NCBI GenBank assembly: GCA_913043225.1
Contig: CAJWLU010000023.1
Location: 1-55,508 of the forward strand
Origin: an uncultured Acidobacteriota bacterium
Lineage (GTDB): Bacteria > Acidobacteriota > Vicinamibacteria > Vicinamibacterales > UBA8438
Reading direction: 5' to 3'
DNA: 55,508 nt
Under the pieces are notes generated by a model. It saw nothing but the letters and a program-made list of their open reading frames with translations. It was not told where the DNA came from and did not search any database. Made by a program: the position numbers and the translations under genes. Shown piece by piece: positions 1,617 through 54,100 of this stretch (positions are counted from its first letter, which is position 1; every line of letters begins with the position of its first letter).

Positions 1617-3968
1617 ATGAGTCATTCGCACCGAGTGTTGGCGCTCGTTTTGGCGTCGATCGTCACGGCCTCGACCGCCGTCGGGCAACGCCGCGACTTC
1701 ATTCCTCCGGTGCCGGCGCCCGACGGGCCGGTGGTGCTCTACAGTGCCGAGGTGCAGCGCATCCGGGTGGTGCCGGTCGCCAACGATCTCGAGCACCCGT
1801 GGGGGATGGCGTTCCGGAGTAACGGCGACATCCTCGTTACCGAGCGCGACAAGGGGACGTTGCGTGTGATCCGGAACGGTCAGTTGCTCGACCGTGACAT
1901 CCCGGGAGTCCCCGAGGTGTTCTCCGATTCTGACCGGGCGGGGCTGATGGACGTGGCCGTCCATCCCGCGGACGACCGGATCGTCTACCTCACCTATTCG
2001 AAGTCGATCCGGACCGACGACGGGGGCGAAGGAGTTACGGTGGCGCTGGCGCGTGGCCGGCTCGACAACGGCAATCTCACCGAGGTGCGCGACATTCTTG
2101 TGGCCGAGGGGGTTGACCGCGGTATCGCCGCTTCACGTTTGGTCTGGGGTCCAGACGACTCGCTCTACATGACGGTGGGCGGTTCCTACGTGTTCGCCGA
2201 CACCGGCAGCTACGCACAGGATCCCGGCACCCACTTTGGCAAGTTGCTTCGACTGAGTGACGACGGCAGTGCCGCGCCGGACAACCCGTTCACCAGCGAT
2301 TCGGCCTATCTCCCCGAGATTTACTCGATGGGCCACCGCAATCAACTGGGGCTGGCCTGGCACCCTGAGACAGGCGATTTGTGGGCGACAGAGAACGGCC
2401 CCCAGGGTGGCGATGAGGCCAACATCATCAAGCCGGGCGCGAACTACGGCTGGCCGCTCGCGTCCTACAGCCGTGAGTACTCGGGTGTGCGAGTGAGCGA
2501 GACACCGTGGCGGCCCGAGTTTGAGGACGCGGAGATCCTCTGGTGGCCCTCCATCGGCCCCTCAGGCCTAGCGTTCTACACCGGTCCTCACTTCCCCGAA
2601 TGGGAGGGCAACCTATTCGTTGGCTCAATGATGGAAGGCCGGATGCCGCGCACCGGACACATCGAACGGATTGTCTTCAACCGTCGCGGCGAAGAGATCC
2701 GCCGCGAGTCGCTCCTGACCGAGCTCAAGCAGCGGATTCGCGACATCCGGCAGGGGCTGGATGGTTATCTCTACGTGTTGACCGACGAGGCCGCCGGTGT
2801 GCTCCTGCGGATCGAGCCGGCCCGTGCCATCGTCGCCCCTCCGGGTAGCAGCGTCTTCATCGACCGGCTGACGGAGGCGCGCGTGCCGTCCCTGCCCCGG
2901 GCCGAGTGGTCGGAGGAGCAGACTGCGATCGCCGAGGCGTTCACCCGGACCGGACCGCCGGGTGAGGCGCTCCGAACGCTCCTTCGCGTGCCGGCGCTAG
3001 CCAATCGGTTCCTGCCGCTGCTGACCTACGTGTCCAACGACTCGACTTTGTCGCCGCGTCACCGCGGCATCCTGATTTTGCGGACTGCCTGGCTCGCCCA
3101 GAACGCCTATCTGTGGTCTGCCCACGCCGACCGCTCGGACCATGGGCTGACTGCAGACGAGATCCAAGGGCTCGCCGAAGGCGAGGCCGACAGCTTCAAC
3201 ACGTTCGAGCAGGTGCTGATCGATCTGGCCGACGAGATGTTCCGGAACTCGGCGGCCACCGACGCCACCTGGACCGAGCTCTCCCGGATGTACGACACCC
3301 GGAATCTCGCCGACGCGGTGGTCACGGTGGCCGACGTTGTCTCGTCCTCGATTCTGTTCAACACCCTCGGCGTCCAACCCGACCCCAGAGCACGGAATCT
3401 GATCCCGAGCGCGGAGGTGGCGTACCGAATCGACGTGCCGGAGCGTGAGACCCCGCTGACCGCGCCCCGCATTGATCCGGTGGAGGGAGACGGCTTGCGG
3501 GTGGGGCGCACCCTGCGCCAGCACCCCGAGATGGAGTCGCAGTGGTATGCGAGTCCGAGCTATGTGAACAATCCAGAGCTCTCGCGGTTGACCCCGTACG
3601 ACCGCGAGATCCTGATTCTCCGCACGGGCTGGAACACGCAGTCGGTCTACGAGTGGGCCAAGCACGTGGGCAGCGTCGGCCGCGCCCGCGATCATGGCCT
3701 AGAGCCGGAGTGGATCGCGCAGGGGCAGGACGCCGCCGGATGGAATGCCACCGAGCGCCTACTGATCAACGCCGCCGACGAGCTGTATCGCGACACGATG
3801 ATCTCGGACCAGACGTGGACCGCCCTGTCGGAGTCCTACGACACCCACCAGATGATGTCGATCGCGGCGACGGTCGCCCGCTACCGCAAGGTGTCGATGA
3901 CCCTGAACGCGCTCGGCGTCCAACCGCTGCCAACGGACGAGGGTTTCCCGGTTCTTGAAGGGTACTGA
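1617..3968 (+). CDS. Soluble PQQ aldose sugar dehydrogenase (GSDH/YliI-like) fused to two AhpD/CMD-like domains
   Basis: Signal peptide; LEHPWGMAF, YSMGHRNQLGLAW, ENGPQGGDE, GANYGWP; C-terminal repeats RGILILRTAWLAQNAYLWSAH and REILILRTGWNTQSVYEWAKH. Confidence 0.85.
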   Translation: MSHSHRVLALVLASIVTASTAVGQRRDFIPPVPAPDGPVVLYSAEVQRIRVVPVANDLEHPWGMAFRSNGDILVTERDKGTLRVIRNGQLLDRDIPGVPEVFSDSDRAGLMDVAVHPADDRIVYLTYSKSIRTDDGGEGVTVALARGRLDNGNLTEVRDILVAEGVDRGIAASRLVWGPDDSLYMTVGGSYVFADTGSYAQDPGTHFGKLLRLSDDGSAAPDNPFTSDSAYLPEIYSMGHRNQLGLAWHPETGDLWATENGPQGGDEANIIKPGANYGWPLASYSREYSGVRVSETPWRPEFEDAEILWWPSIGPSGLAFYTGPHFPEWEGNLFVGSMMEGRMPRTGHIERIVFNRRGEEIRRESLLTELKQRIRDIRQGLDGYLYVLTDEAAGVLLRIEPARAIVAPPGSSVFIDRLTEARVPSLPRAEWSEEQTAIAEAFTRTGPPGEALRTLLRVPALANRFLPLLTYVSNDSTLSPRHRGILILRTAWLAQNAYLWSAHADRSDHGLTADEIQGLAEGEADSFNTFEQVLIDLADEMFRNSAATDATWTELSRMYDTRNLADAVVTVADVVSSSILFNTLGVQPDPRARNLIPSAEVAYRIDVPERETPLTAPRIDPVEGDGLRVGRTLRQHPEMESQWYASPSYVNNPELSRLTPYDREILILRTGWNTQSVYEWAKHVGSVGRARDHGLEPEWIAQGQDAAGWNATERLLINAADELYRDTMISDQTWTALSESYDTHQMMSIAATVARYRKVSMTLNALGVQPLPTDEGFPVLEGY

Positions 3969-4024
3969 GGAGGTTCCGGCAGGGCAGAAACCCCAGGTTC
4001 TGTGACCCACCGCCGGCGCCCGTA

Positions 4025-4063
4025 CGAAAGAAGGGCCTCGGCCGTGTGGACGGCCGAGGCCCT
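4025..4063 (-). terminator. Intrinsic terminator
   Basis: Perfect 14-bp stem AGGGCCTCGGCCGT-N4-ACGGCCGAGGCCCT (4032-4063), followed on the minus strand by TCTTTC. Confidence 0.85.
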
Positions 4064-4139
4064 GAGTCGGGATCTGCGTCAGTGACGTTGGGTTACCCCG
4101 TCCTGGGGAAAACCCTCCACCACTGTTGCTTGGAGGTCC

Positions 4140-4184
4140 CTACGAGGACGTCACCTCCGCAGAGCCGTACTTCAATTCGTCCAC
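4140..4184 (-). CDS. 14-aa small ORF MDELKYGSAEVTSS
   Basis: GTG start 7 nt after GGAGG within AAGGAGGTGATCC (4198-4186); TAG at 4142-4140. Confidence 0.55.
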   Translation of the reverse strand: MDELKYGSAEVTSS

Positions 4185-4314
4185 AGGATCACCTCCTTCG
4201 CAGGCGCACAGCATGCGGCGGGTCCCAACCCGCCCGGCCCCTGGGCCGCCCGGCCACCCACTCGGGGCCGCCGCGCCAGACGTTGCCGCCGACGCGGAAC
4301 CACGACAGGGCCAC

Positions 4315-4343
4315 ATCGTGTGCCCTGGCCCTGCCGTTGTCAA
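4315..4343 (-). promoter_or_regulatory. Sigma-70-type promoter
   Basis: TTGACA (4343-4338), 17-nt spacer, CACGAT (4320-4315). Confidence 0.65.
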
Positions 4344-4358
4344 ACCGGCCCCGCCTCG

Positions 4359-4628
4359 CTACCTGGTCGGTTCGATGACAAGGAGCGTTTGTCGAGTAAT
4401 GCCGCTGCCGGATTTCGCCAGAATCCGCGTGTCGAAGGTGGACAGACACCCTCCGTGAGACTGGGCTAACCCCCACAGGTAGATGTCGGTGAGCTGTCTA
4501 TGCCTGGGGATCATGACCGTGTCGAAGCGGTCGCCGTCGAGCGTCGTTACAGTGTCTGGCCAGAAGTGGTGGCCATTGCCTGAGAAGAATGTGGCCAGGC
4601 GTTCGATCAGGTCTCGTAGGCGATCAAA
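4359..4628 (-). pseudogene. 5'-truncated VapC/PIN-domain toxin remnant
   Basis: Startless frame (in-frame TAA just upstream) reads ...HHFWPDTV...HRQLTDIYLWGLAQSHGGCLSTFDTRI..., resembling the VapC C-terminal pattern H.QLTD.YLL.LA..HGG.L.TFD..I. Confidence 0.7.
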
Positions 4629-5970
4629 TTAACCCCGTCGCCCAGAGTACGTAGACCACAGCCATCGAGGCGGCGCCGTTGACGAAGGTCACTCCCCCGA
4701 ACGAGATCAGCGCGCCCTTCAGCGACATGCGAGATAGCGAGGTGCACACCCAGAAATAGCTCGAATTCACGTACTTGATGATGATCGACCCCGCCGCGCC
4801 GGCGAGCATCGTGGCCTCGGGGCTCAGTCCAAGGGTGTCCATCATCGGGGCGGCGACCGAGGCGGCCGTGATTACGCCCACCGTGGTTGACCCCGTGATC
4901 ATGTTGCCGGCGATGCCGAGCACAAACGGTAGGAAGATGGCGGGCAGCCCGGTTGCGGCCACGGTCTCCGCAATCGCATCCACGGCGGGCGTCGAGCGGA
5001 GGATCTGGCTCAGCGATCCGCCCAGCCCGGTCACCATGATGATCATGGCCGAGCCTCGCAACCCCTCTTCGACCCAGGTGCTAACCCGCGCAGCGGCATG
5101 GTTCGCCTTTGTGTTCCGGTAGGCCAGGAGGATGCCGATGCTCAGGGCGACGACCGGCCATCCCAAATACAGCATGGCGGCATTGACCAGGTGGTCTTCT
5201 GGCAGCGCGAAGGCGGTCACGCTCTGGCTGGCAATCAGGACCAGCGGAATCAGGATCGGGGCGTAGGCGCGCCAGGTGGTCGGGAGCTCGGCCTCTCGTC
5301 CCTGCTCAATGAACGATTGACCGACGAACTCCTCGGATGGCGGCGACTCGATGTGTGGGCCTACGATCTGGGCGTAGGCCCAACCGGCCAGCGCGCCGAT
5401 AAAGGTGGCGAGACCGCCGAAGACGATCACCTGCCCGATGTCGGCGTCAACCAGCGCCACGGCCGCCAGTGGGCCCGGCGTCGGAGGCACCATGGCGTGC
5501 GTGAGTTGCATCGCCCCGACCAGGCCGGTCGCCATAACGCTCATGTTGAGACCGCTGTTGATGGCGGCGGAGTGGACCAGAGGATTCAGGATCACGTAGC
5601 CGACGTCGGAGAAGATCGCCAGGCCGATCACGAACCCGCTTAGGGTCAGCGCGAGCGGCATCCGATGCTGGCCCACCCACCCGATCATCGAAGCCGTAAT
5701 TCGCTCGATCCCGCCTGTGTGCTTGAGCGCCTCGGCCAGGATCGAACCCATCACGATGACCACTGCGATGCCCTGGACGGTGCGTCCGAAGCCTTGCTCG
5801 AAGGCATCGATAAAGGCTTGCCGATCGATCCCCGGGATCAGGGCGAACAGCACGATGGGTACGAGCAGCGCGATGAAGACGTGCCACTTGAATCTAGTGA
5901 TGAGGAGAAACAACAGGGCGACGACGGCCACCAGACCGCCGATGGCGATGAGGACGCTCTCGGTAATCAC
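4624..5970 (-). CDS. GntP family permease (gluconate:H+ symporter-like)
   Basis: Probable GTG start at 5970; many TM helices; FSDVGYVILNPL, THAMVPPTPGPLAA, GSTTVGVITAAS, YVNSSYFW. Confidence 0.85.
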   Translation of the reverse strand: MITESVLIAIGGLVAVVALLFLLITRFKWHVFIALLVPIVLFALIPGIDRQAFIDAFEQGFGRTVQGIAVVIVMGSILAEALKHTGGIERITASMIGWVGQHRMPLALTLSGFVIGLAIFSDVGYVILNPLVHSAAINSGLNMSVMATGLVGAMQLTHAMVPPTPGPLAAVALVDADIGQVIVFGGLATFIGALAGWAYAQIVGPHIESPPSEEFVGQSFIEQGREAELPTTWRAYAPILIPLVLIASQSVTAFALPEDHLVNAAMLYLGWPVVALSIGILLAYRNTKANHAAARVSTWVEEGLRGSAMIIMVTGLGGSLSQILRSTPAVDAIAETVAATGLPAIFLPFVLGIAGNMITGSTTVGVITAASVAAPMMDTLGLSPEATMLAGAAGSIIIKYVNSSYFWVCTSLSRMSLKGALISFGGVTFVNGAASMAVVYVLWATGLI

Positions 5971-6023
5971 ACGGGGAGCATCATGCGCGCGGTCGTTGAT
6001 GTCAATCCGCGTACAATGACGCG

Positions 6024-6320
6024 GTGAGCTATCGCGATAAGCGAGGCGTCGTCTACGACCCTGTGCCGTTGCCCACCCATGAGGTGACCGACGCCGTGGC
6101 CCTCGACGCGCGCCTGGTGCGGCGCCACACCGAGGCTCGCAAGACGATCCCGTTCTACACCGGAGCCGACGGTGTCCAACTGGCGCAGCAGCCAGCCAAC
6201 CATCGCCGGCGCTGGACGGACGCCCAGTGGCTCGCGTTCGAGGAACACCGCAAGCTGGAAGAAGAGGCGTCGCATGTCGACGAGCCTCACGCCGCGGTCT
6301 GGGTGGTCCGCAACCACTAG
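6024..6320 (+). CDS. Hypothetical protein (98 aa)
   Basis: TACAAT 6 nt before GTG (leaderless-type); GC3-rich codons; no family recognised. Confidence 0.55.
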   Translation: MSYRDKRGVVYDPVPLPTHEVTDAVALDARLVRRHTEARKTIPFYTGADGVQLAQQPANHRRRWTDAQWLAFEEHRKLEEEASHVDEPHAAVWVVRNH

Positions 6321-6519
6321 TCGGGTTCCCCGTCACATTCTTGCGGCGGGGCTGACCGGGTTCTACGTGGTCCGCAACCCTGACAAGCTGCGTTGGCTCG
6401 AGGCATTCTGTCGCGCGACGCTTGACCCCGGAGGTCCGATGCGGGCATCCTCGTCTGGATCTGATTAACCCCGGCGGTTGTTGTCCGCCGGCCATGATGT
6501 TTCAAGCGAAGGAGCAGGC

Positions 6520-51180: not shown

Positions 51181-54100
51181 ATGTCGCTATCTCGCCGCAC
51201 GTTCCTCAAGGTCTCGGTCGGCGCCGCGGCCGGCGTCAGCGCGCTCGGGTTCGACCTGCAGCCGGCCTACGCCGCGGTGCGGCAGCTCAAGATTCGGAAC
51301 GCCCGCGAGTACAAGACGGTCTGCCCCTACTGCGCCGTGGGCTGCGGCACCATCGCCTATACCCACGGCAGCGGCGGACTGAACACCACCAACACGGTCA
51401 TCCACGTCGAAGGCGACCCCGATAGCCCAATCAACGGCGGCACCCTGTGCCCCAAGGGTGCGTCGCAGATGCAACTGGCCATCAGCCCGCGGCTGAAGAA
51501 GAGCCCGATGTATCGGGCCGCCGGCGCCAGCGAGTGGCAGGAAGTCGACTGGGACTTCGCCATGGACTGGTTCGCGCGCAAGTTCAAGGAGTCGCGCGAC
51601 CGCACTTTCGTCGAGCAGGACAGCCAGGGGCGCACGGTTAACCGCTGCAACGGCATCGCCTGGGTCGGCAGCGCGACGGTGGCCAACGAGGACGCGTATC
51701 TCATCACGAAGACGATGCGTGCCATGGGGCTAACCTACATCGACCATCAGGCCCGCATATGACACAGCCCCACGGTGGCCAGTCTGGCCGCCACGTTCGG
51801 TCGCGGGGCGATGACCAACCACTGGAAGGACATCAAGAACGCCGATGTCGTACTGGTGATGGGGGCCAACCCGGCCGAGAATCATCCCTGCGGCTTCAAG
51901 TGGGCGGTCGAGGCGCGTGACGAGAACAACGCCACGCTTGTCACCATCGATCCCAGATACACGCGGACATCGGCGGTGGCCGACAAGCACATGCAGATCC
52001 GCCCGGGGTCTGACATCGCGGTGCTGGGCGGGCTGATCCGTCACATTCTGGCCAACGACCTCCACCATGCCGACTACGTCCGTACCCACACCAACGCTTC
52101 GTTCATTGTCAGCGGCGACTTTGGGTTCGAAGACGGGCTGTTCTCGGGCTTCGAGGAGGCGGCCGGCGCCTACGACAAGACGTCTTGGGGCTACGAGCGG
52201 GGACCGGATGGCTATGTGCGGCGTGACGAGACGCTTGAGGACCCGCGCGCCGTCTTTCAGCTGCTGAAGCAGCACTACGACCGCTACACGCCGGACGTGG
52301 TGGCCCAGATCGCCGGCTGCACCGAGGAGAAGTTCCTCGAGATGGCCGACATCATCTGCTCCACCGGTCGTGCCGACCGGGTGGGCACGATCATGTACGC
52401 GGTGGGCTGGACCATGCACACCGTGGGTAGCCAGATCATCCGGACCGCGGCCATCCTGCAGCTCCTCTTGGGGAACATCGGCCGTCCGGGTGGCGGGATC
52501 AACGCACTCCGAGGCCACGCCAACGTGCAAGGTGCGACCGACCACGCGATCGTGGCGGGCATTCTCCCGGGCTACTTGAAGGTGCCGACGCCAGACCAAG
52601 GCAGTTTCGACGCGCATCTCGCGGCGTCGACGCCGACGCCGCTGGTGCCGGACACGGTCAATTACTGGGGGAATTACCCCAAGTTCCTCGTGTCCCAGCT
52701 CAAGGCCTGGTTCGGCGATCACGCTACCGAGGCCAACGAGTTCGGCTACCACTACCTCGGTAAGCAGGACGGCGACGCCACCTGGCTCTCGATCTGGGAT
52801 CAAGTCCGGCAGGGCAGCATTGAGGGCTTCGTGTCTCTCGGCTTCAATCCGTTGCTGGCGGGTCCCGACGTTCCTAGACTCCTGGAGTCGATGGCTCAGT
52901 TGCAGTGGAAGGTGGTCATCGATCCGTTCATGCTCGACAGCGCCGAGTTCTGGCGGGCGCCAGGGGTCGACCCCGCCACGGTCCAGACCGAGGTGATGTA
53001 TTTCCCCACCACGCACTGGATCGAGCGGGACGGTTCGTTTACCAACAGCGGGCGGTGGGCGCAGTGGAAGGAAAAGGCGATCGACGCGCCTGACGGGGTG
53101 CGGTCGGACACCTACGTGCTGTCGGAGCTGTTCTGGCGGGTCAAGGAGCTCTATCGCGAGGACGGCGAGGACGCCGTCTACCACGACCCGATCGAGCACC
53201 TCACCTGGGACTATCTCAATCCGCGGCTGCCGACCCTGGTCGAGCTCGCCAAGGAGATCAACGGCTACGACCGTGAGACGGGCCGGTTGCTGTCGTCATT
53301 CGGCGAGCTCGCTGCCGATGGCTCCACCACCTCGGGCAACTGGATCTACACCGGCAGCTACACCGAGGAAGGCAACATGATGGCGCGGCGGGACACCGCC
53401 GATCCCACGGGGCTCGGGATGCACCACGGCTGGGCGTTTAGTTGGCCGCTCAACCGGCGCGTCCTCTACAACCGGGCGTCGGCAGACGCCGACGGGCGGC
53501 CCTGGGAGGCGTCTCGCGCCGGTATCGCCTGGAACGGTCGTGAGTGGATTGGCGACGTGCCGGACTACGGTCGGACGACGCCGCCGGACGGGCCCGGGGC
53601 GTTCATCATGACCGAGGAGGGCGTGGCGCGGCTGTTCAGCAGCCATCTGGCCGACGGTCCGCTGTCCGAGCACTACGAGCCTGTCGAGAGCCCGACAGGT
53701 AATCCGCTGCACCCCGCGGTGCCGATCAACCCGACCATCAACTGGTATGACGGCGTGCGGGAGACGCTGGCCACCGCCGACGACGATTTCCCGTACGCCT
53801 GCACCGTCTACCGTGTGGTGGAGCACGAGCATTTCGTGACCCGGAACGTGCCGCTGCTCGTCGAGGCGATGCCGGACTTTTTCGTCGAGATCCCCGAAGG
53901 GCTCGCGGCTGAGAAAGGGATCGCTAACGGATCGCGGGCTCGGGTCTGGTCGAAACGTGGCGAGGTCGAAGGCGTGGCGATCGTCACCAAGCGGATCAAG
54001 CCACTGACGGTGAACGGTCAGACCGTGTGGACGGTCGGCATCCCCGTCCACTGGGGATTCGTGGGTATCACGCAGGGGTCGATGGCCAATCTCCTCACGC

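Follow-up and report, generated by a model that had tools for sequence, protein, structure and literature searches.

A conserved, structured small RNA gene of Acidobacteriota with an extended Shine-Dalgarno tract: a candidate mini-mRNA of the rre type

The small RNA gene and its distribution

The window analyzed here, the whole stretch of 55,508 nucleotides of contig CAJWLU010000023.1 from an uncultured Acidobacteriota bacterium of the order Vicinamibacterales, carries on its minus strand a free-standing gene for a small RNA of about 280 nt, which extends from a promoter (4343-4315) to an intrinsic terminator (4063-4032) and is flanked by a convergent GSDH/CMD gene and a GntP permease gene (Table 1). 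The RNA is predicted to start near position 4308. A tract complementary to the 3' tail of 16S rRNA, lying about 110 nt from the RNA start, precedes a very short open reading frame (ORF), and the RNA ends about 115 nt past the stop codon of that frame. An earlier note on this DNA, made from the letters alone, had postulated a minus-strand small RNA here, and its existence is borne out by its own promoter, its terminator and its conserved homologs. The coordinates given in that note are all exact, including those of three CCTCC motifs (GGAGG on the minus strand) at 4192-4196, 4154-4158 and 4114-4118, spaced by 38 and 40 nt.

Table 1. Features of the small RNA locus and its flanking genes.
Feature	Position	Strand	Sequence and remarks
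Promoter-like element	4315-4343	-	-35 TTGACA 4343-4338, 17-nt spacer, -10 CACGAT 4320-4315
5' folded domain	4202-4300	-	5' hairpin, long-range helix, hairpin P3
Long-range helix	4251-4247 with 4206-4202	-	GGGCG with CGCCU; consensus GGGCG:CGCCY; ends 3-5 nt before the tract
Hairpin P3	4234-4229, loop 4228-4223, 4222-4217	-	GGCGGG, loop UUGGGA, CCCGCC
Extended Shine-Dalgarno tract	4186-4198	-	AAGGAGGUGAUCC; complementary to 16S GGAUCACCUCCUU
Mini-ORF	4184-4140	-	GTG...TAG, 14 codons + stop, MDELKYGSAEVTSS; contains TACGGCT 4169-4163
Helix A, 5' strand	4163-4158	-	UCUGCG; RNAalifold and pair counts
Helix B, 5' strand	4155-4148	-	GGUGACGU; RNAalifold and pair counts
Variable post-stop domain	4096-4136	-	CCUCCA 4136-4131 with UGGAGG 4119-4114; CCCC 4108-4105 with GGGG 4099-4096
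3' partner segment	4073-4094	-	AACCCAACGUCACUGACGCAGA; pairs with helices A and B
Intrinsic terminator	4063-4032 (whole feature 4022-4063)	-	14-bp G+C-rich hairpin, then T-rich tail UCUUUCGU
GSDH/CMD gene	1617-3968	+	convergent neighbor downstream of the RNA gene
GntP permease gene	4624-6495	-	other flanking gene

A motif of the form TTGACN-N16-18-NANNNT is present in 82 of the 90 homologous loci, with an exact TTGACA in 77, and in the loci that have the motif it lies mostly 100-125 nt 5' of the Shine-Dalgarno (SD) core. The element at 4343-4315 was not among the calls of a generic sigma-70 scan, because its -10 box is weak by that consensus. The terminator hairpins align across homologs and show compensatory changes (RNAalifold alignment columns 382-415).

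Homologs were collected in three ways. A BLASTN search with positions 4020-4260 recovered them from 16 of 40 related genomes (15 of the 24 from the same family and one from another family of the order), and all 16 share the arrangement AGGAGGTGATCC-N-GTGGA...GGAGGTG...TCCTCGTAG; two further matches, of 23-24 nt, are chance. A strict pattern scan with one genome per species returned 67 loci, nearly all labelled Vicinamibacterales, Vicinamibacteria or Acidobacteria, with a spacer that is always 21 nt long (19-23 were allowed). Finally, a covariance model was run on samples of 151 genomes each from the class and from the phylum and gave hits in 28 and 24 of them, respectively, both counts including the window's own genome. 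Within the class, in addition to the own family, two other families have the RNA (16 of 17 and 5 of 6 genomes searched), whereas it was found in none of the genomes searched from four others (0 of 27, 0 of 39, 0 of 13 and 0 of 10). Across the phylum it occurs in families of other classes (2 of 2, 5 of 5 and 6 of 6 genomes) and in several singletons. In total there are more than 90 homologs. The element is single-copy, as no second copy was found in its own genome.

Two sets of records require comment. A locus labelled Alphaproteobacteria (L086) was rejected as an occurrence outside the phylum because it is syntenic with Vicinamibacterales loci: the RNA locus of L086/L143 (genome G314) is 84-86% identical to these over about 4 kb. 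The 2.9-Mb contig that carries it has a 16S gene of its own with a helix 45 of the AGCCGTA type, 80-84% identical to acidobacterial 16S, and the record is likely mislabelled or a chimeric assembly. Two contigs of the metagenome-assembled genome set PAUN01 (L049 and L080) each contain a slightly different copy of the RNA gene, which represent either two copies or two strains in one bin.

In order to assess the genomic context we examined the neighborhoods of these loci. No conserved neighbor emerged: at most 22 of 68 loci share any neighboring gene, and the largest cluster consists of spurious GC-rich ORFs. When 134 ORFs flanking 13 loci of different families were scanned against Pfam, they proved to be unrelated genes, with no peptide-modifying partner and no regulated downstream gene among them, and BipA adjoins the element in two closely related genomes only. 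These observations bear on the possibility that the RNA is a cis-acting leader, namely a ribosome-dependent attenuator of a downstream gene, as the succession of a short ORF, hairpins and a terminator might suggest. However, the next gene in the window is convergent, the neighbors differ among the 13 loci, and the terminator takes part in no alternative pairing that we could see; we consider an attenuator extremely improbable. The product of the convergent gene is itself unusual, since its 783 residues comprise a GSDH beta-propeller (E 2e-102) fused to CMD-like sequence.

Four RNA libraries from three studies were compared with window positions 3600-4900; the sequencing runs that contain this stretch are marine. 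Each library yielded one whole contig of 151-228 nt at the element (4064-4284, 4061-4272, 4061-4288 and 4058-4208). These contigs have no loose ends and are confined to 4058-4288, leaving the flanking genes uncovered, with the exception of two unrelated low-identity pieces from one run. The contigs also contain strain variants, 4187 G>A (X16 and X18) and 4242 T>G (X14, X15 and X16). Separately, the oligo-dT RNA run X18 includes a 169-nt contig at 4407-4556 with 8 differences and a loose end at 4407, which is probably the sequence of a relative. A minus-strand ORF of 51 codons (4359-4514) lies within the same stretch and has no Pfam match.

The tract complementary to the 16S tail

On the plus strand, AGCCGTA (4163-4169) is followed by 16 bases and then by GGATCACCTCCTT (4186-4198), and the minus strand accordingly reads CGAAGGAGGTGATCC-T-GTG GAC GAA TTG AAG TAC GGC TCT GCG GAG GTG ACG TCC TCG TAG GGACCTCCAA. 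At one edge of the tract the G at 4199 could contribute a G.U pair; at the other, position 4185 does not match, and pairing resumes with the first G of the start codon. The 55-contig, 3.85-Mb assembly of the own genome has no 16S gene, so the 16S sequences of relatives were used as a stand-in. We took 15 genomes, five from the own family, five from two other families of the class and five from other classes. Their 16S tail GGAUCACCUCCUUUCU is identical as far as it is readable (L138 is masked after CCTT), and the 3' end in these relatives has the form ...GGTAGCTGTAGGAGAACCTG(T/C)GGCTGGATCACCTCCTTTCT.

The earlier note had drawn attention to the 13-nt complement to the anti-SD tail, and this complement is beyond chance. 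Among the 9846 GGAGG sites of the own genome the longest complement to the 16S tail is the one in this element, 13 nt, followed by one of 12 nt and twelve of 11 nt. It is exact in all 16 BLAST homologs, which were found by a search made without reference to the tract, and in 28 further homologs found with the covariance model the tract is retained with wobble-preserving changes only. A degenerate rRNA fragment on the plus strand was considered as its source and rejected, because the similarity ends at 13 nt and because promoter, frame and terminator are all on the minus strand.

The way in which the tract varies is particularly informative. We compared 25 distinct 18-nt tracts from 44 homologs that had been found by similarity and not by pattern (one of them, L007, was read by eye). 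At positions 4-16 a G never changes, and all substitutions are A>G or C>U with a single exception, a U>C. Each A>G or C>U change leaves a G.U pair with the rRNA, and the exception amounts to one mismatch. Positions 4 and 5, which the parsing does not constrain, follow the same rule, and the 4187 G>A variant of the RNA contigs, which is C>U in the RNA, still forms a G.U pair with 16S. No internal partner matching GGAUCACCUCCUU exists within the RNA. This asymmetry of substitutions is what one expects if selection maintains pairing with a constant partner that reads GGAUCACCUCCUU, and the comparison of sequences strongly supports the view that selection preserves the ability of the 13-nt tract to pair with the anti-SD tail of 16S rRNA. 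Among homologs the tracts reach 15 pairs (AAGGAGGTGATCCAG) or, in two families of the class that carry AGAAAGGAGGTGGTCCAG, an 18-nt tail complement that includes one G.U pair and ends on the first base of GTG.

A second contact with 16S rRNA had also been proposed, in which TACGGCT within the ORF would pair with the 5' strand of helix 45, so that the RNA would clamp the 16S 3' end twice and trap, store or help to mature 30S particles. In the window the 7-mer does stand at near-native spacing, and with the AGCUGUA of the relatives six Watson-Crick pairs and one G.U pair would be possible. However, TACGGCT occurs in just one of 36 distinct ORFs, the window's own; the other 35 offer 1-5 Watson-Crick pairs out of seven with either version of helix 45. 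It sits in the most variable part of the frame, and its U4163 belongs to helix A of the RNA's own fold. The helix 45 5' strand is AGCTGTA in 15 of 15 relatives and not the AGCCGUA that the proposal presumed for the host. Moreover, mature 30S subunits have helix 45 closed into a stable hairpin, which counts against the pairing. The helix 45 match is a chance one, the idea is refuted by the very standard set with the proposal, and we regard a double clamp as highly improbable. Of the codons singled out in the earlier note, GAGGTG is invariant at synonymous sites, and the bases of TACGGC vary freely.

Fold and reading frame of the RNA

The core of the RNA downstream of the tract is formed by two helices. 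Their 5' strands (4148-4163), separated by a GA bulge at 4157-4156, span the invariant GGAGGUG at 4158-4152. In the 3' partner segment, ACGUCACU (4088-4081) pairs with helix B and is followed by GA (4080-4079) and by CGCAGA (4078-4073), which pairs with helix A. In consensus form, helix A is UCUGCG:CGCAGA and helix B is GGUGRCGU:ACGYCRCY, with a GA/GA internal loop between them, and ORF codons from about 7 or 8 through 12 are thereby paired with a segment about 70 nt downstream.

In order to evaluate this fold we counted the alignment cells that pair. In 32 sequences 94.6% of cells pair, as opposed to 40-53% when the partner is slid, and in 60 distinct sequences spanning the phylum the corresponding values are 95.3% and 39-48%. 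Compensatory changes occur in 14 of 29 pairs; shuffles gave 5.6 +/- 1.2, and none of 500 reached the observed number. Helix 1 is 100% paired, helix 2 (P3) 99.2%, helix B 98.5% and the CCCC/GGGG hairpin of the post-stop domain 94.7% (in the 60 distinct sequences), with compensatory changes in four of six pairs of P3 and in five of six pairs of helix A. In addition, CCCAA at 4092-4088, directly before the 3' strand of helix B, is complementary to the loop of P3, with 4-6 bp possible in 60 of 60 sequences. Coordinated changes are seen in two clades (UGGGG with CCCCA, and GGGC with GCCC); the column-wise test for this contact is weak, because the core never varies. A tertiary contact between the P3 loop and CCCAA is probable on this evidence.

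Insertions of about 25-100 nt occur in seven homologs (L081, L024, L107, L113, L115, L117 and L121) at two permissive sites, one after the stop codon and the other, in L024, between P3 and the SD tract; outside these sites the alignment of the RNA is undisturbed. The post-stop domain varies both in sequence and in length, and several homologs carry 50-100 additional nt there.

The earlier note had ascribed weight to all three GGAGG motifs. The second, GGAGGTG, is invariant in all parsed homologs and is found 8 nt before the last sense codon in every homolog examined, whereas the third is kept in the window's order only. The second copy constitutes the 5' strand of helix B together with the GA loop, and it need not be a ribosome site. 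It had also been suggested that an anti-SD-like GACCTCCA just after the stop could mask one of the later SD copies. In the window, GGACCTCCAA at 4139-4130 does follow the TAG stop (4142-4140) directly, and the motif pairs locally with the third GGAGG. Masking by a post-stop ACCUCC was rejected as a feature of the family because the motif is absent in other orders.

The mini-ORF begins with a GTG (4184-4182) at canonical spacing, 7 nt past GGAGG. In all 68 pattern-defined sequences the frame measures 45 nt and the peptide is of the type MDDxxxGSAEVASS. Twenty-five aligned sequences (21 distant homologs from across the class and four from the window's order) all have an intact frame of 13-14 codons, with a GTG or TTG start codon separated from the tract by a single base. 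Their peptides are mostly of the type MSxxxVSAEVASP, and where they differ by one codon from the window's order the alignment has a clean gap of 3 nt. Seven homologs from other classes have 14 codons ending in EVAxx*, with the frame intact (L130 was read by eye). There are no in-frame stops in 35 distinct variable regions, whereas the other two frames are interrupted by stops in 6 and 16 of the sequences, and the chance of an in-frame stop per shuffled sequence is 0.30. Over codons 2-9 the mean entropy at codon positions 1, 2 and 3 is 0.82, 0.72 and 1.12, so the third position is the most variable. Kinship among the sequences weakens these frame statistics; the switching between GTG and TTG and the in-frame indel are independent of it. 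Because the frame lacks stops, has a fixed length, switches its start codon and changes by an in-frame indel, we conclude from the comparison that it is read by ribosomes. The suggestion in the earlier note that the RNA acts on ribosomes rather than encoding a peptide does not hold in its second half, given this open, length-constrained frame.

These properties also speak against a purely non-coding RNA, one that would act by base pairing or protein binding and in which the ORF and the SD-like tract would be incidental to structure. The strongly conserved, covarying fold and the clearly structural part that the internal GGAGGUG plays in helix B would fit such an RNA. A GTG or TTG start at a fixed spacing, a stop-free frame and indels in threes are not expected from an incidental ORF, however, and the substitutions in the tract point to an external partner with the exact sequence of the 16S tail. 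We judge this explanation to be very improbable.

The opposite view is that of an ordinary small-protein gene, in which the peptide of 13-14 residues is functional, the strong ribosome binding site secures its synthesis and the structure does nothing but stabilize the mRNA. An always intact frame of fixed length, the in-frame indel, the start-codon switching, the excess of variation at third codon positions and a C-terminal xEVAxx* kept across the phylum are all in its favor. On the other side, the non-coding parts (about 100 nt on the 5' side and 90 nt on the 3' side) equal or surpass the peptide in conservation, the N-terminal half of the peptide is free to vary, and the codons that are conserved are invariant at synonymous sites and fall within helix B. 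The 13 loci examined have no conserved partner or modifying gene next to the element. Furthermore, in the published account of rreB, an alphaproteobacterial mRNA with a comparable tract, the extended SD lowers rather than raises translation (PMC5711450). A functional small protein thus appears unlikely to be the main product of the gene.

Proposed working and comparison with known systems

The closest parallel is rreB, a 165-nt mRNA of Bradyrhizobiaceae (Hahn et al. 2016; PMC5711450). According to that report, rreB contains a 17-nt complement to the 16S tail that includes the first base of its GTG start, followed by a 14-codon ORF. It is found mainly in the ribosomal fraction, where it co-sediments with 30S, it is weakly translated, and its RNA is more stable when a stop replaces the start codon. 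Analogues with a complement of 16-17 nt are described from four alphaproteobacterial orders, and the authors report no similarity between RreB and RreR (PMC5711450).

The Acidobacteriota gene is conserved, its RNA has a covarying fold and a maintained frame, and its tract is selected for pairing with 16S rRNA. Combining these observations with the analogy, we think it likely that this free-standing gene yields a structured RNA of about 280 nt which doubles as a ribosome-docking mini-mRNA and works like rreB. Tight binding of 30S, weak translation, remodelling of the RNA and any downstream physiological role would be extrapolated from that analogy. Of the ribosome trapping contemplated in the earlier note, the helix 45 clamp falls away, and strong docking is a reasonable expectation because rreB co-sediments with 30S and is translated weakly.

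In the proposed working, the tract and the first six codons would form a single-stranded bridge between two folded domains, on which a 30S subunit would dock laterally and very tightly, with an SD:anti-SD helix of 13-18 bp and GUG or UUG in the P site. The start of helix A, at about nucleotide +19 to +22, lies just outside the mRNA entrance of the ribosome, and for this reason the docked complex could form with the RNA still folded. Initiation and early elongation would be slowed by the length of the duplex, by the weakness of the start codon and by the presence of a helix at the mRNA entrance, as elongation must break both the long SD helix and the interrupted 14-bp helix. A ribosome reading through to the fixed stop would have to dismantle the core fold transiently, including the 3' segment, which probably also touches the loop of the 5' hairpin. 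How long the RNA lasts, and in what state, would then hinge on its engagement with ribosomes, in the sense of 'ribosome-regulated expression'. Candidate roles in the cell are a sensor of free ribosomes, a holding site for them, or control of the RNA's own decay.

Several points weigh against this reading. The window's tract provides 13 contiguous Watson-Crick pairs, below the at least 16 of the rre authors, and in single-sequence folding it is not especially open, with a mean unpaired probability of 0.38 compared with 0.31 for the whole RNA. The 67 loci of the pattern scan carry the tract by construction of the search pattern, and the alignment of 60 sequences was fitted to the model, which favors structure. 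The bases that encode the peptide's C-terminus (EVA) are also those that make up helix B, so that the conservation of one is inseparable from that of the other. The contigs from RNA libraries reveal neither strand nor true ends, and such libraries can contain DNA; consequently they are a hint, and not proof, of a discrete abundant transcript. Lastly, overexpression of rre, the function of which is given as unknown, had no effect on growth (PMC5711450), which makes a simple ribosome-sponge role doubtful.

A more elaborate possibility is a pseudoknotted device that measures or holds ribosomes. Capture of 30S would be followed by unzipping that exposes the second SD, which sits 8 nt before the P-site codon of a ribosome at the fixed stop; the anti-SD would then be captured again, and the ribosome kept or cycled. 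On this reading, the RNA and the rre RNAs of Alphaproteobacteria would together make up a widespread, convergent class of ribosome-docking mini-mRNAs, with a role in ribosome homeostasis, quality control or dormancy. We find this quite unlikely.

Mini-mRNAs that carry the full complement to the 16S tail have been published for Alphaproteobacteria only, and the same design appears here in an unrelated and ecologically dominant phylum. The Acidobacteriota family offers a richer comparative record, with more than 90 homologs, a fold supported by covariation and a substitution pattern that shows selection for 16S pairing. It also constrains the mechanism through the distance from tract to start, the helix at the mRNA entrance and the fixed stop two codons after the internal SD copy. 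Annotation pipelines overlook both the RNA and its tiny frame. Our literature search, extended to the articles that cite the rre report, yielded no account of this Acidobacteriota RNA and no later functional work on rre genes in the library searched.

We also compared the element with other known RNAs. In the Rfam scan of the window no match on the element reached the gathering score, and matches at E up to 10 are chance ones, mostly to the terminator hairpin. For Ms_IGR-5 (RF02471), an actinobacterial small RNA with a threshold of 45 bits, cmscan of 3980-4360 gave no match at E up to 10, and the three weak matches found genome-wide at that limit all lie off contig C23. A tmRNA was rejected, as ARAGORN found nothing in 3800-4600 and the RNA has an SD and a start codon and ends in a terminator. 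The only match in the window to reach its gathering score is elsewhere, to SECIS_3 (51757-51815, plus strand; 67.1 bits, gathering score 63), where a selenoprotein gene is presumably located.

With STAB-SD elements, which have no start codon, and with the strong-SD stabilization of Bacillus mRNAs, exemplified by hbs (PMC5737220), the element shares a very strong SD that would hold a ribosome or 30S and affect RNA lifetime. Elements of both kinds lie near the 5' end of long mRNAs and protect the downstream coding sequence. Here, in contrast, the tract is about 110 nt into the RNA, a conserved start and frame come after it, and the RNA terminates about 115 nt past the stop. The rnTrpL/peTrpL system of Sinorhizobium is similar in that it is a small terminated transcript with a conserved 14-codon ORF of which both RNA and peptide may act. 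That transcript derives from the attenuator of the trp operon, with regulatory Trp codons; our element has neither a downstream operon nor a run of regulatory codons, and it has a full-tail SD.

The likeness to rre is closer (PMC5711450). Both RNAs are separately transcribed from a promoter and terminator of their own, and both are conserved within a lineage with no conservation of genomic context beyond it. In both, the SD lies within a long complement to the 16S tail, of 17 nt in rreB and of 13 nt in the window (up to 18 with G.U among homologs), with 7 nt between AGGAGG and the start; in rreB the complement is unbroken and takes in the first start-codon base, whereas the window has its mismatch at 4185. 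Both use a GTG start (GTG or TTG among our homologs), with small ORFs of 14 codons in rreB, 18 in rreR and 13-14 here, and for both the region downstream of the tract is part of the predicted structure. A tRNA gene adjoins rreB in Bradyrhizobium (PMC5711450), and in one clade of our loci a tRNA-Arg(ACG) gene is located about 310 nt from the RNA gene (2869-2945 in L086, with 100% identity over 78-83 nt in L022, L039 and L069); this is probably a coincidence.

There are also differences from rre. The Acidobacteriota RNA is longer, at about 280 nt as against 165 nt for rreB, and its leader of about 110 nt folds into a conserved domain. Its ORF is paired over the second half with the 3' segment, an invariant GGAGGUG lies inside the frame 8 nt before the last sense codon, and a loop-to-strand tertiary contact is probable. 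Binding to 30S and weak translation have been demonstrated for rreB and would be expected of the Acidobacteriota RNA. Set beside the published descriptions of rre, the element is, by its sequence features, a new, phylum-wide and structurally elaborate variant of the rre-type mini-mRNA, and its presence in Acidobacteriota suggests that the mini-mRNA design arose more than once or is ancient.

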